Of a DNA stretch of 64,000 nt, positions 4,841-63,136 are shown piece by piece. Location: contig OX597814.1 in NCBI GenBank assembly GCA_951406725.2, positions 209,188,001-209,252,000 on the forward strand, in the 5' to 3' direction. Every line of letters starts with the position of its first letter. Within the stretch, counting starts at the first letter, position 1. The position numbers and the translations under genes were made by a program. Source of the stretch: Octopus vulgaris. Its lineage: Eukaryota. The notes beneath the pieces were generated by a model. That model worked only from the letters and a program-made list of their open reading frames with translations. It did no database searches and was not told where the DNA came from.

Positions 4841-4981
4841 GTATATATATATATATATATATATATATATATATATATATATATAATATATATAAATAAA
4901 AGGTGAAATTAATTAATTAGGGATAATTATCAATTACACCAAGTAGATTTCGGTATGTAAAAGCCCCATTCGAGGAAAATT

Positions 4982-5176
4982 TAAGTAATACTAAGTAATT
5001 AAGGGTTTAGCAACGAATTGCCTCACCAACACACCGAATTTAGAAATAGCAGTCAAAGAGATATAGCTATTCCTTTTAGTAGAAGGAATAGCTATATCTC
5101 TTTGACTGCTATTTCTAAATTCGGTGTGTTGGTGAGGCAATTCGTTGCTAAACCCTTAATTACTTAGTATTACTTA
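4982..5176. repeat. Near-perfect fold-back palindrome (~94-bp arms) within a (TA)n-flanked element
   Basis: 4982-5075 is the reverse complement of 5083-5176. Confidence 0.95.
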
Positions 5177-5242
5177 TATATATATATATATATATATATA
5201 TATATATATATATATATATATATATATATATATATATATATG

Positions 5243-6280
5243 CAGACATGACAGAAGTAAATAGACACGCTAGAAAATTTTTTTTATGCTTCAGGTTCTA
5301 TATGCCACTGTTTAATTATACCAGGCACAAAAGACACCTTGGAACTGTCTGAATTTTAAAGAGTCCGTATTGTGGGTTATTCTGAAGGTGGACATAATCA
5401 ACGCAAAATCGCAGAAAACCTTGGGATCCCACTTTCTACTGTTGTGATTGTGCAATTCACCAGAGAGGGGAAGGAGTCCACATCACATCACCCAGATCAA
5501 CCAGGACCCTCTGACACGAGCCTTCTCTTTGCTAAGAGAAGTGTTGAGGATGATCCTCGTTACAAGGTCTCTGATATAGCAGAAGAGGTTGACGTCAGTC
5601 CCAGAACAGCTGTCAGGCATGACCACCAACTTGGTTACTATGGCAGAGCAGCAAGAAGGAAGCCACTTCTTCGATCAGCCAACATCTAGCGGAGAAAAGA
5701 TTGGGCCAGTGAGATGGTAGAGAGGCTACTAGCATTTTGGGACACTGTCATATTATCTGATGAGTCCAGATACTCTGTATTTTCTGATAGTGGTCGAGTG
5801 TGGGTCTGGAGACTGTGATCAAGAATTTGATGATGAAACATGGCAGCTATTCTGTGATGGTCTGGGGAGCAATTTGGAGCAATAGTTGATCAGAGCTGGT
5901 GGAGTGTGAGGGAAGCATAAACTCAGATAAATATGTGTTCATATTGCAGAAAGGACTCCTTCCAATCTTCTCCAGTGGTGAAATGATTAAAGAAGACTAT
6001 TTATGGAAGATGAGGCTCCTTGTCACACGGCTAAAATGACCCAAGATTTGTAGAATGAAAATGGCACTAAAAAGCTTCCATGGCCAAGCCAGTTACCAGA
6101 TACAAACTCGATTGAACACATCTGGGACATGGTGGACAGGACACTTCATAAAAGGAACAAGAAAACATCTTCAAAGCCAGATCTTTTGAGATTACTGCAT
6201 GAAACTTGGCAAGAAATTTCCGCAATAGAACGTTCGTCATCTGATCAGTAACATGACTGATAGAGTATTGCATATTCTAC
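5243..6280 (+). pseudogene. Decayed Tc1-family (DD34E) transposase element
   Basis: HTH ([16 protein letters not shown]), [45 protein letters not shown]; stops and frameshifts; starts CAGACATGACAGAAGTAAATAGACAC after TA. Confidence 0.93.
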
Positions 6281-6606
6281 TAAACATTAAATATTCACTT
6301 TATAACAATGAATAACTAATTTCAGATTTAATGTATAATAAACAGTTCAACAGTGACAATTTATAACTGAGAAAACAATTACTAAATACTCCGCTATTAA
6401 ATTGAAGGAATTAAAACAATTGATATTTGTTTTAATATCTGTTCATATAGATTATATTGTTTTTAGTATATTTAAACTAAGACATATTTTAATTAGTTCT
6501 ATCTCAAGATATCAAGTACTTTCCTGATATTCATATCAATGTATCATTAAGATATATTGTTTATATTGCAATATTTAATTTTATATGTATAAGTCTGTTC
6601 GTGTGC

Positions 6607-7045
6607 ATATATATATATATATATATATATATATATATATATATATATATATATATATATATATATATATATATATATATATATATATATATATATATAT
6701 ATATATATATATATATATATATGTATATATATATATATATATATATATATATATATATATATATATATATATATATATATATATATATATATATATATAT
6801 ATATATATATATATATATATATATATATATATATATATATATATATATATATATATGTATATATATATATATATGTATATATGTATATATATGTATATAT
6901 GTATATATATGTATATATATATATATATATATATATATATATATATATATATATATATATATATATATATATATATATATATATATATATATATATATAT
7001 ATATATATATATATATATATATATATATATATATATATATATATA
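6607..7045. repeat. (TA)n microsatellite
   Basis: Direct. Confidence 0.97.
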
Positions 7046-7269
7046 AGAGATAATATATGTATTGAGAGATAATCGTGTTATTGAGACCCAAGGTGTCAGA
7101 TAATACTGAATAAGTGCTATAGACAGACCATTAGTTAAGTTCCAGATTCGGTAATTTTGCGAATAAGGGGTTCAACGTTGGTTCTATGTCAGTGTGTATA
7201 TAACAATATTTTGCGTAATAAGATAAAGAATCAAATCTGTGTAGATATTAGAGCATTTATAGATAGAAG

Positions 7270-59482: not shown

Positions 59483-59884
59483 TTGACTATTGAGTAATTG
59501 TAACATATTATTTTATAGATAAATTTCCTCTATCTACATAATATTGAGGTCTCTTTCTTTCTTTTGTTATCTTACAGTTTTTACCAATATATATATATAT
59601 ATATATATCATAATATAAACGACAAAAAGCTTTGTGAAATACAGAAACCCATGATTTAATGACCGAAATAATTTATTTCGCAATTTATCAAGTTGTTAAA
59701 ATTAAAAAGATGGCCTTGTAATTATCTTCAATGCAATCGACATTTGAATGAGCGCGTGGATTTAGAAATGACAGGTGAGGTAATTAAATTCACGGTGAAT
59801 ATAACCTGGGTCTTCCAAATATAAAAATTACACAAACCAATACTGGAATGGTCTATGATGTGTCCGGTAGTTTAGCCTTAATTT

Positions 59885-60440
59885 TCGCCAAGATGTGGTT
59901 TTTAAAATGCGAACTTAAACAACAACAAAAAAAGTATTACACAGTAACTGGAGATTCTTCGAGCTCTTCCAAAAAATAGTTTTTCAAGCGAGCGCATGAA
60001 ACGTCTTTCTGACCCGTTAATATAGAGTTTGTCCTTAGAAAATACTTTCCATCTGGTGTTCTCGTCCCGACGTCTCCAGATTACTGCGAGAAGGTCGTTG
60101 TATGTCTCTTTTAGGGGTGTCTTATGGTTGAAAGATAGTTGTATCTGGGTTTAAATTTTTCTTCAATTCTCGGTCTCTGTCCGGCAGTTGCCTTAATTTG
60201 CTGATACATATGCTTTATAAACAATGAGGGTAAATCGCAGGCCTGCTTTAGAGGACATTTAGATTTATGACTCCATGTGCATTAGTTCTGAGTCACTGAT
60301 TGTTTTTGATATATACCTTTACATTAGGGGGCATGGATATGTGATTTTAATCGTGTGCCGATTAAATATTGCTCTATACGTATGGTTGCTCTGAAACTGA
60401 TTATCTAATTATTATTAGTGATTGGCTAATATTCGGAATT
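59885..60440 (-). pseudogene. Second Naiad-type Penelope-like element fragment (linker + GIY-YIG)
   Basis: NHTYRAIFNRHTIKITYPC..NVK ... KCPLKQAC ... IVYKAYV ... EEKFKPRYN ... RWKVFSK..LYINGSER. Confidence 0.7.
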
Positions 60441-61421
60441 AAGTTCCTAAATACAATAGTATATATATATATATATATACGAATGAGTGGACAAACGAAA
60501 GAAGTGCATTCAACAAATTTGCTGTGAGTTACATGCATGAATCAAACTGTTTTGATCTGAAATTGCAAAGATAATCTGGAACTCAACTGAGGAAAGAAAA
60601 CTCCGAATTACCCGTCCTTGTTTTCTTTGTATCGTCTATCTGGATGTTTTGCGTTCTTGTCCCATTTTGTATTATATATATATATATATATATATATATA
60701 TATATATGTTACATATGTATATAGTATATCTATATGATGTATATATATAATGTATATATATGAAGTACGCACACACACATACACACCCTCGCATATAGAT
60801 TTAGTGGTTCGTTGAAGATGGTCTTATGTTTCGCTAGTTTAGTAGTAGTGGGAAGCAAGTTCACGTGGAAATGCATTGATACAATCTTGATTAAGGTAAA
60901 AATAAGGGATTTACAAACAGATATAAACTAAAAGCATGAATAAGTTAAGAGAATTGCATAATGCTAAATTCAGCTTTTTTTGAAGAAAATTTTGGGTATT
61001 AAAATAATTGGATTTGTAGGTTATTGATTTTAATGCCTTCTATAGTAAGAATATCGAGTTAATTATTCAATAATTTACAGAATATTCTGCTTGTCTGCGC
61101 TATGATTCTCCAACGTAGGGAGGTTTTAAAATACGCCTAGTGTCTCCAAGTAAAATTCAAGCTCTGAGCATATTGCATTTACAAGTTTTAAATGAAGACA
61201 GTAGAACAAGAGAAACGACGAGAAATCTTTTTCCATTGTCCTCATTGGTAACTTTTATAGGCCTATAGGCCATGTTCTCAGAGCCAGAAGATGAATTGAA
61301 GACAGGCGTGTTTTAAAACCTGCCTAGATTAGATCTTCAATGTATGAAACTATTAGTAGCTCCATAACTATATATATATATATATATATATATATATACC
61401 TTTTAATACGTGACCTCGTGA

Positions 61422-61630
61422 GTACCGCTTGGCGATTTTTTTCCTCTGTCTTCCCTTCTCGGGATCTTTCCTTCTCCTATGTTTCCGACGAAGAGCTCCG
61501 CTCGAAACGTTAAACCCTCCTTCTTCCCTTCTTTCCTGAGCGTCCAATAATACTTTATTTGTTCCACGTCCTCGCGTTGTTGTGTTTTTTTTTGTTTTTT
61601 GTGTTTTCTTGTTTGGATTAACTTTATATA
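61422..61630 (+). mobile_element. Short HHR-bearing element ending in (TA)n
   Basis: HHR at 61481-61515, GTTT-CCGACGA...GAAACGTT-AAAC. Confidence 0.75.
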
Positions 61631-61654
61631 TAAATATACTCTCTTATATACACA

Positions 61655-61930
61655 CGCACCTTCGTGTTAGGGGTCATCTTTACTTTGTTAACTCCCCTAC
61701 TTCTTCGCTCTCCTGTGTGACCCTTCTGTCCGGCAGTCGCCATCATAGATCGGTAGCCACTACACACATTTTTTTCTCTCCCTGTTTTTTTCTGTGTCCC
61801 TTTCTGTAGAAGAGCGTAGACTCGAAACGTAAAAGACTTTTTCAATTCCTGAGCGTTATACTAATACATCTGTTTGTTTTGTACACCACCTGTCTTCGTA
61901 TTTTGTTTTTTTCGTGAACCCTCCCTATAT
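61655..61930 (+). mobile_element. Related HHR-bearing element ending in (TA)n
   Basis: CTTT-CTGTAGA-a-GAG(CGTAGA)CTC-GAAA-CGTA-AAAG at 61800-61835; 3' tail also found inverted at 9176-9237. Confidence 0.65.
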
Positions 61931-63136
61931 AAATATATATATATATATACATAATTATATGTAATTTAGAATTTAGAGTGGTTGGACGTATTTGGCGTCT
62001 ATATCTAGCATATAGGCATGGTAGCTTCTGTGCCCTTAATTATAATTGTATTCTATACAATTATATATCTTTATATATGAATTTTACCTAAAATGTTATT
62101 TTTACATGCTGGCCACTGATAAAATCCATTAAATTTAATGATTTTATCCTTTAATTATGTTTACACACATACATACATACATGCACACACACATATATGA
62201 CTAGAACACATCTAAACGTAGTTCTACTTGACCAGGATAAATTCGAGATTAACAAAGACAACTTCAGAAACAATAATATCAGGCATGCAGAAATAGAGAG
62301 CGGACGATGGAGAATACACAACGCATTCAGACTGTAACAAAATACTATATGACATATAATTAACCCCTTCATGTCAGAATTTGCTGTATGATCCTCAACT
62401 AGACAAAACTATGGATCTGAAGGCCGCTTTACGTTGCTTGACTGACGACATAAGTCTGCTCTGTTCTGACCGAGTTGAGGATATACATCAACGATTAGAG
62501 CGCACGAAATAGTAGTTGTTGGACATCGTCTTCGCCTATTTTTTTTTACTCTGTTTTCGTCTCTCTCTTTATTTCTAATCTCTATCTCTGTTTCCTTTTC
62601 TCTCTCTCTATATATATATCTTTCTCTCTGTCTTTATCTTTTTCTCTCCCTGGTTTTTGTTTTTCCTCCTGAATCACTTTCACGGCAAGAAGTGAATATC
62701 CTCTCATGCAGTATAAATTAATATAGCAGATTCATACTCATGTCTCTAGAAAAAGAAGCCGTTTGTCCAATATGTTATCCAATCGGTCATTTAACCCCCT
62801 CTGTGCACACACACACACACATACTCAAATACGCATGCACCTCGCCTATACACACATACATCCTCATATAAGCACATACACGCTGTCTCTCTCCCTCCTT
62901 TCCTCACCCTCTCTCTCTCTCCTTCCTTCTCTTTCTCCCGTTCACATATTGTTCAACAGAAGAAAGCTAATTTCCCATTAAAACAGACAGTGTTGATGCT
63001 GCTGGTTACAAGATTAATGCTATTTTGGGAACCATGGGAATCCATTTGGATCAATGGGAGATAATTCAACAGCAAATAAATAAAACAAAACATTTATGGC
63101 TGTGTAACACTGATAGGGCATTATGAGGCACTGCTG

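Follow-up and report, generated by a model that had tools for sequence, protein, structure and literature searches.

The insertions of Penelope-like elements, as portrayed in the parts of PMC8557442 drawn on here, target (TA)n and are characterized by 5′ truncation, partial tandems, an adjacent inverted and 5′-truncated copy by the 5′ end, and an additional tail of 30-40 bp. According to the same parts, endonuclease-positive members have been reported in Octopus species, and the reverse transcriptases (RTs) of these elements form the sister group of telomerase reverse transcriptase (TERT). The words "hairpin" and "stem-loop" are absent from PMC8557442, and no folded 3′ domain is described there. 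Here, four families of dispersed repeats, termed E1 to E4, are analysed from the copies present in a 64-kb window (C1:209188001-209252000; the window is the whole stretch of DNA under study) of an Octopus vulgaris assembly comprising 2.8 Gb in 227 contigs. The layout of E1-E4 matches the published layout of Penelope-like insertions in its (TA)n target, 5′ truncation, partial tandems, adjacent inverted copy and possession of a tail; unlike the elements of PMC8557442, E1-E4 carry no open reading frame (ORF), and no long ORF outside simple repeats was found within the window. The subject of this report is a structured RNA module that recurs at the 3′ end of these families.

Metazoan non-long-terminal-repeat retrozymes provide a second point of comparison. 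In the portion of PMC7229834 (Cervera and de la Pena 2020) used here, they resemble E4 in being AT-rich, non-coding and tandem-forming and in bearing a hammerhead, for which a type-I-like candidate core was recognized by eye in E4. They differ from E4 in that the E4 monomer is ~500 bp, as against 150-450 bp for retrozymes in the same source, and in that Rfam does not recognise the E4 hammerhead. Neither a conserved 3′ junction nor (TA)n targeting is described in the portions of the retrozyme papers covered, and the terms "microsatellite" and "target site" occur 0 times in PMC7229834. Retrozymes have been linked to Penelope-like elements in the abstract of a preprint (Li, Clavereau, Pollet 2026, 10.64898/2026.07.22.740005). 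Unlike retrozymes, neither E1 nor E2 was seen to contain a hammerhead-like core.

"Stringent" long interspersed nuclear elements (LINEs) and their short interspersed (SINE) partners, such as eel UnaL2 and UnaSINE1, share recognition through a 3′ stem-loop. By analogy, E1-E4 would be alike in outline, each being a short non-coding element copied in trans by way of a 3′ structure that lies beside a short, target-annealing repeat. The enzyme would be of the GIY-YIG Penelope type rather than of the APE-type LINE class, and the signal would be larger, consisting of a junction and a hairpin. In L1 twin priming, an inverted 5′ segment results from second priming at the other end of the target. By contrast, the two copies in the present families overlap fully, giving a hairpin, and the second priming site would be a defined internal TA-rich tract.

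A recurring module at the 3′ end and its predicted fold

On the evidence of their sequences, E1-E4 are high-copy dispersed non-coding retroelements inserted in (TA)n microsatellites. At a first look, searches of the genome, which is animal, microsatellite-rich and cephalopod-like in look, returned 1683 candidates for E1, 1065 for E2, 822 for E3 and 2790 for E4, figures that serve as lower-bound hints and not as copy numbers. The unit is defined here as the right hairpin arm together with the tail. H1 and H2 denote the two long-range helices between body and tail, and T the 3′-terminal hairpin. The 5′ box comprises the 5′ strand of H1, a side hairpin and the 5′ strand of H2, and the tail box comprises the 3′ strands of H2 and H1.

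The predicted fold of the 3′-terminal ~180 nt of the RNA is a three-way junction that stacks on the terminal hairpin. In minimum free energy (MFE) structures of E1 (copies L043 and L049), E2 and E3 units, H1, the side hairpin and H2 are followed directly by T and a short A/U-rich end, with helix pairing probabilities of 0.81-0.98 across the three families. An inner hairpin lies within H2, as do a CCTTAATT-like motif and the internal TA tract; the junction strands in these folds consist of 1-2 nt, UAAA or UAUUU, and 0-1 nt. E1 and E2 units, at 175-190 nt, amount to little more than the folded domain. Given that such near-minimal units have >1000 first-look candidates each, the domain appears sufficient for mobilisation. 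Taken together, the MFE folds and pairing probabilities of three families, the anchored shuffle tests of all four, a tail box and T conserved across many families, and changes on both sides of the pairing from one family to another support the existence of a recurring 3′-terminal structured RNA module.

A first-pass annotation of the window had proposed a fold shared by all four elements and had named the pairing strings in each. For E2, E3 and E4 these strings lie on a single strand and are complementary (Table 1). The E1 pairing does not hold as it was written, AGTAGA (5078-5083) and GGAATAGC..TTCGGTGTGT having been read from the plus strand and ACATACCGAAATCTACT from the minus strand of 4942-4958. 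On the tail-bearing strand of the E1 window copy, only the TTCGGTGTGT/ACATACCGAA half of the pairing is present. The mispairing arose because the AGTAGA in question belongs to the inverted copy, the window unit being 5′-truncated by ~8 nt. In the family alignment, AGTAGA is found on the strand of the tail at the 5′ end of the unit in 14 of 28 E1 copies, such full units beginning AAGTAGA. The partner of the E1 tail box is 5029-5038 (minus strand, reading TTCGGTGTGT) and, in full copies, also the 5′-terminal AAGTAGA.

The same annotation had placed GATAA and then (TA)n shortly after each stem. The two occur in this order in all four window copies, and in the E1 family in only ~6 of 28 copies on a reading of the alignment. 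GATAA lies at the base of a stem in E3 and E4 and near the loop in E2. As a shared functional motif it was rejected on account of these differing structural positions and of the E1 copies, the majority, that are without it.

Body and tail were searched for their highest-scoring split duplex, and the score was compared with those obtained from dinucleotide shuffles. Without an anchor, the observed score was reached by 2/300 shuffles for E1, 0/300 for E2, 122/300 for E3, 18/300 for the E4 window copy and 162/300 for E4 copy L075. In all cases the top-scoring natural duplex adjoined T, terminating 34-42 nt away from the 3′ end. With the duplex anchored on T, the score was reached by 0/2000 shuffled bodies for both E1 and E2, 61/2000 for E3, 11/2000 for the E4 window copy and 30/2000 for L075; these counts overstate the evidence somewhat because the anchor was picked post hoc.

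Comparison across families revealed that H1 is made up of different but complementary strands, reading AGTGG/CCACT in E3, AATGG/CCATT in a further family, g (L160, L011), AGTAGT/ACTACT in E4 and AAGTAGA/TCTACTT in E1. H2 differs between E3 and E4 by an A-T versus a G-C pair, both changes lying at CpG sites. Within the E3 family, for which 22 of 30 copies were retained after the 8 that are 5′-truncated before H1 had been dropped, 89.7% of cells pair, compared with 32-52% for slid partners; in T, 92.9% of cells are paired across the 22 copies. A genome-wide pattern, GATAAAN{8,26}GATTTTATCCT, gave 1379 matches, compared with 17 for the reversed control. Among 30 sampled pattern loci, 22 distinct T hairpins were found, the distal stems of which differ yet pair (for example, TCTT/AAGA, CATT/AATG and TTTTTTT/AAAAAAA). 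By eye, a box of the form AYGCTGRCYACT(T) stands beside T in most of these 30 loci, and the tails of E3 and E4 are therefore regarded as homologous.

With a covariance model derived from E3, E2 (E ~1e-3) and several other families were recovered; E1 was not found with it and E4 was weakly scored. In shuffle tests of body similarity, the score for E3 and E2 was reached by 0/1000 shuffles and the relationship is clear, that for E1 and E2 (6/1000) and for E3 and E4 (20/1000) is weak, and none was detected for the remaining pairs among E1-E4. The description of the four elements as dissimilar must be amended to this extent, since E2 and E3 are clear relatives and E3 and E4 have a common tail. A strict regular expression for the 3′ module matched only E2 in the window, and a looser scan of 120 loci pointed to three possible further families.

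Insertion layout and the long hairpins

TA repeats flank 30/30 E2 copies, and the flanks of E1, E3 and E4 copies are mostly TA or other microsatellites. The distance from the 5′ end to the fixed 3′ end ranges from 325 to ~640 nt in E4 and from 160 to >400 nt in E3, and both the 5′ ends and the length are near-fixed in E1 and E2. Every E2 copy returned by the score-ranked genome search covers the whole query, with an identity of 93-98%. Partial tandems are found in the longer copies of E4 and E3, in which the tail continues directly into the 5′ part of the next unit (junctions in L088, L075, L065 and L096, with an E4 monomer of ~497 bp in L088), and some E4 copies end with TGTA, the first 4 nt of the next unit.

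Inverted upstream copies are present in all four families. On its outer side, the inverted arm invariably terminates at a TA-rich or AT-rich spot that is internal to the unit and immediately precedes the tail, and the tail itself, of ~80-95 nt, lies outside the inverted repeat. The hairpin apex varies from copy to copy (28 E1 and 30 E2 copies), the filler letters being different and either arm being cut back to a variable extent; both arms bear the same subfamily variant in 30/30 E2 copies. Given that the apexes are copy-specific, the long hairpins cannot have been inherited unchanged. They are probably by-products of insertion, with the inverted arm added at that point, and apex deletions in inherited palindromes may be an alternative source of the variation. 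Most E4 copies cover positions 175-501 of the query only, corresponding to the right arm and tail, from which it follows that the window copy has, in its left arm, an additional partial copy in inverted orientation. From this layout we infer that the RNA template is the unit, that is, the right arm with the tail.

The E4 copy had also been described as lying downstream of a hammerhead ribozyme. Rfam gave no hammerhead at E<=10 in the window copy; a core can be recognized by eye in a sister subfamily. There, CTGATGAG is followed by a long stem II, then by CGAAA, then by a stem III that is short and nearly palindromic, and finally by a GTGATC|TGC site. A type-I-like hammerhead was drawn by hand, and CTGATGAG, CGAAATCAC and GTGATC|TGC are all intact, pairing into stems I-III, in 4/28 copies. 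In four copies (L075, L086, L089 and L090) the putative type-I-like hammerhead is well formed, its stem II measuring 26 nt and its stem III being nearly palindromic. Applied to the by-eye core, the Rfam hammerhead models gave no match at E<=10 in L075 and an 11-bit match to HH9 (E=6.2) in L088. Otherwise, Rfam searches in E-value mode of the E4 region, of 9 loci and of two E4 copies returned only microsatellite-like microRNA and small nucleolar RNA noise.

Proposed role of the module and competing explanations

The annotation had offered two roles for what it called an undescribed cis-acting RNA structure. The structure is supported as a recurring 3′-terminal module, the ribozyme alternative is without support, and recognition and priming by an RT is the most plausible reading. 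No description of a folded 3′ domain of Penelope-like elements was found in the literature searched, subscription journals and Repbase/Dfam records being outside its scope. We place at roughly 55% the probability that E1-E4 are (TA)n-inserted non-coding retroelements in which the predicted 3′ junction and hairpin of ~180 nt act as a cis signal for binding of a Penelope-type RT/endonuclease and for the target-primed start of synthesis. On this model, the 5′ box in the body would pair with the tail box such that H1 abuts the terminal hairpin, and a Penelope-type enzyme would grip the folded domain. Of the two TA-rich ends left by cutting of the target, one would base-pair with the A/U-rich 3′ end of the RNA and the other with the TA-rich tract inside H2, and first-strand synthesis would begin at the 3′ end. 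Second priming at the internal tract, or snap-back of the complementary DNA, would then produce the inverted copy.

Several observations weigh against this model. The MFE fold of E4 lacks the junction, which there has a pairing probability of only 0.03 and, when imposed, a penalty of 1.9-2.8 kcal/mol, since its tail bases are taken up by a local helix. Without the anchor, E3 (122/300) and E4 copy L075 (162/300) are not above chance, only E1 and E2 standing out, and both the anchor and the parameters were chosen after the data had been seen. Covariation among collected genomic copies, the check suggested in the first-pass annotation, was sought in the E3 family and was negative for H1 and H2, with 0 pairs changed on both sides in the 22 copies; the whole-structure covariation score was reached by 41/500 shuffles, and RNAalifold applied to the same alignment does not recover either helix. 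By the standard set in the annotation itself, this outcome counts at the family level against the structure; the lack of covariation is also what would be expected of neutrally decaying copies. In E2, the 5′ strand of H1 reads GTGGT in 13/30 copies and GTGGA in 17/30, and the latter variant weakens H1 to 4 bp, yet the subfamily spread. Finally, a blind check of 30 pattern-picked loci, many of them truncated or decayed copies, gave no qualifying duplex in 16, a non-significant one in 8, a doubtful one in 2 and a clean significant split duplex in 4 (L143, L155, L160 and L163).

The search for a partner element also counts on this side. An autonomous element with this tail was not found, and the model R1 had no match in the 3′ untranslated region (UTR) of 17 Penelope-like coding loci among 21 sources. 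A tblastn search of Penelope-like ORFs against 150 loci and the window located RT fragments near tails, out of register with them, and the 3′ ends of four families coding for RT and GIY-YIG differ from the E1-E4 tails. From 6136 GIY-YIG candidates, the comparison covered a small sample, the 3′ ends of ~13 loci, together with two further regions, all with a C-terminal endonuclease; no Naiads, in which the endonuclease is N-terminal, were located. In favour of the model, intact elements with RT and C-terminal GIY-YIG in a 781-aa ORF are abundant in the genome and also end in (TA)n, although with other tails.

A more far-reaching version of the model holds that the ~180-nt domain is portable, being both necessary and sufficient for copying in trans by a Penelope-type RT, and that its three-way junction places the 3′ end and the internal tract next to each other as a pair of TA-rich priming sites, so that both ends of the cut microsatellite prime on one RNA. 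We regard this version as doubtful.

It is improbable, in our estimation, that the fold, though real, acts for the benefit of the RNA and not in enzyme recognition, through stability, through ligation or circularisation of the 5′ and 3′ ends, or through template jumps that make tandems. In full E1 units the first 7 nt form H1 abutting T, which would place the 5′ and 3′ ends side by side, and a role of this kind would be consistent with the head-to-tail partial tandems of E4 and E3, the hammerhead-like core in E4, the E4 copies that end in TGTA as if copied from an RNA longer than one unit, and the highly self-paired circular RNAs reported for metazoan retrozymes in the part of PMC7229834 used here. 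However, the 5′ strand of H1 is internal in E3 and E4, far from any 5′ end or hammerhead site, and E1 and E2 yielded no hammerhead-like core by eye, no Rfam ribozyme match in their copies and no head-to-tail tandem arrays. If the RNA ends were instead set by self-cleavage, with the junction acting as a ribozyme of undescribed or rearranged type, the fixed 5′ ends of E1 and E2 would be accounted for, and three-way junctions are common in small ribozymes. This is nevertheless very unlikely, given that Rfam has 0 matches across the whole window at gathering thresholds and finds none of the ribozyme families at E<=0.1 in 9 loci with E1-E4 copies, and that, by reading of the folds, the E1-E3 junction strands are without CUGAUGA and GAAA at the required places.

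The remaining explanations dispense with an RNA signal. The split complement could be a functionless relic that persists in each family after an inverted duplication at insertion lost its internal palindromic hairpin by slippage. Inverted copies are routinely made, the tail box reads as inverted-copy sequence minus the side hairpin, there is no within-family covariation, and the subfamily with a weakened H1 spread nonetheless. Against such an origin, the tail resembles the reverse-complemented body only as far as the ends of the helices, the duplex abuts T in all families, pairing is kept despite different H1 sequences (AGTGG/CCACT, AATGG/CCATT and AGTAGT/ACTACT), and the tail box is conserved across many families with differing bodies; we therefore consider it distinctly improbable. 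Very little probability is assigned to E1-E4 being DNA transposons, of the foldback/miniature inverted-repeat (MITE) or Helitron-like kind, with the hairpins acting as DNA signals for a transposase. Long near-perfect inverted repeats would suit that explanation, as would the short AATTAAGG motif, which in E2 marks either end of the hairpin and also the 3′ end, and a subterminal 3′ hairpin with insertion at an A/T dinucleotide repeat recalls Helitrons. It is opposed by E3 and E4 copies that vary at the 5′ end but share a fixed 3′ end, by the presence of partial tandems and of hairpin apexes peculiar to each copy, by the asymmetric tail that is absent from the inverted arm, the hammerhead-like core in E4 and the absence of 5′-TC or CTRR-3′ ends from the sequences read.

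Helitrons are recognized by 5′-TC and CTRR-3′ ends, a subterminal hairpin and insertion between A and T. Membership of that group was rejected despite the subterminal hairpin and the A/T target, the ends being CCAATTAAGG and AATTAATT, TAATTATG or TTTTAAAT. Foldback/MITE membership was likewise rejected, the tail lying outside the inverted repeat and the apex and 5′ ends varying between copies.

Features of the window and implications

The positions of the elements and of their parts are collected in Table 1.

Table 1. Positions of E1-E4 and their parts in the window
Feature	Position	Strand	Remarks
E1	4899-5176	minus	element as named
E1 unit, body and tail	4899-5073	minus	5′-truncated by ~8 nt, without H1 5′ strand; 28-copy alignment
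E1 inverted upstream copy	5084-5176	minus	left arm of 100-nt hairpin (inverted repeat I20); carries the AGTAGA read on the plus strand
E1 tail box ACATACCGAA-A-TCTACT	4942-4958	minus	3′ strands of H2 and H1
E1 terminal hairpin T, GGTG..CACC	4902-4940	minus	directly after tail box; MFE fold of window unit and of L043, L049
E2	50630-50915	plus	element as named
E2 inverted upstream copy	50648-50735	plus	left arm, inverted repeat I24; outer end at CCAATTAAGG adjoining (TA)n
E2 unit, ~175-180 nt	50736-50914	plus	folded domain only
E2 5′ box	50751-50785	plus	GTGGT 50751-50755 (H1), side hairpin GGCG..CGTC 50760-50763 and 50770-50773, TCTAGCAT 50778-50785 (H2); pairing probabilities 0.92, 0.90
E2 internal TA-rich tract	50823-50834	plus	between body and tail; outer end of inverted copy maps here
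E2 tail box ATGCTAGACCAC	50861-50872	plus	same in 30/30 copies; shuffle tests
E2 terminal hairpin T, GGT..AATTGAT/ATCAATT..ACC	50874-50903	plus	then CTTAATTAATT and (TA)n; fold, 30-copy flanks
E3	61958-62165	plus	element as named
E3 5′ box	61977-62011	plus	AGTGG 61977-61981, side hairpin TGGACGT/GCGTCTA (with GACG..CGTC), CTAGCAT 62005-62011; fold, pairing probabilities 0.98, 0.81
E3 tail box ATGCTGG-CCACT (ATGCTGGCCACT)	62106-62117	plus	complementary to 5′ box
E3 terminal hairpin GATAAAATC..GATTTTATC and 3′ end CTTTAATTATG	62118-62159	plus	fold
E4	29436-29940	minus	element as named
E4 unit	29439-29766	minus	5′-truncated member of tandem-forming family, monomer ~500 bp
E4 inverted upstream copy	29767-29933	minus	inverted repeat I2; outer end at internal GCCCTC/TATATAATATA spot
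E4 degenerate hammerhead-like region CTGAGGAT..CGAAATCACGGTGATA	29678-29745	minus	alignment
E4 5′ box	29580-29599	minus	window copy; AAGTAGT 29599-29593, CCCTCC bulge, TAGCGTG 29586-29580
E4 tail box CACGCTA-ACTACTT (CACGCTAACTACTT)	29475-29488	minus	complementary to 5′ box
E4 terminal hairpin GATAAATTCTT..AAGATTTTATC and 3′ end CTATTTTTAAT	29439-29474	minus	

The 5′ box of the E4 window copy differs from that of most E4 copies, which rely on AGTAGT or GGTAGT farther upstream, together with a side hairpin, GACT..AGTC. In the window copy, the usual H1 partner GGTAGT is mutated to GGTTGT, and a 1-nt insertion creates an AAGTAGT partner nearer to H2 (29593 and 29615-29625, minus strand), which may represent either a relocated helix or chance. 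Contigs from runs labelled as four other organisms are near-identical to the E2 region of the window (50652-50911), with, for example, 1 difference in 177 and 1 in 159, and provide no informative variation; the sole recurrent difference, T>C at 50796, is peculiar to the window copy.

The TA tracts of E2 and E3 are also where a further family of retroelements ends, on the upstream side of E2 (50430-50640) and of E3 (61700-61935), and by eye its 50500-50560 stretch is the reverse complement of part of L137. Further long foldbacks adjoin TA microsatellites at 7930-8570 (arms of 140 nt, 100% complementarity), 39217-39510 (117 nt, 97%) and 58392-58815 (122 nt, 91%); all three lack a GATAA-type tail and could represent separate families that share this insertion geometry. 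A SINE-like repeat (..GGTTCCGGGTTCAGTCCCACTGCGTGGCA..) is present in several copies that terminate at TATATATG by TA repeats, at ~24960-25090 and 27130-27256 and, on the minus strand, at 33754-33880 and 49920-50048. Elsewhere in the genome, L134:906-4587 (G000:C16) is an apparently intact Penelope-like element with a 359-aa ORF1 and a 781-aa ORF for RT and C-terminal GIY-YIG. The 781-aa frame is kept open in many genomic copies, and the 3′ UTR contains repeats of a TGATGACGTC-containing unit, and the element ends in (TA)n.

For repeat annotation, the layout described here bears on many of the "hairpin" repeats by TA microsatellites in this genome, which would be insertion by-products and not foldback transposons. 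Even if the fold has no function, a cleaner description of four abundant repeat families is obtained.

Telomerase RNA contains a three-way junction that is bound by TERT. Should the two-site domain prove correct, it would echo the way in which this sister enzyme grips the junction in its RNA; the parallel, between two three-way junctions that would both be bound by an RT, is one of pure analogy and carries no claim of likeness in sequence or structure. Two-site priming would also resolve a long-standing puzzle, namely why Penelope-like insertions are inverted and tandem. How the RNA of Penelope-like elements is recognized, and how their tandem and inverted insertions arise, is an open question, and an in-vitro system for these elements is called for in the part of Craig et al. 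2021 (PMC8557442) consulted. A widely spread minimal unit of ~180 nt with named helices would make that question testable.

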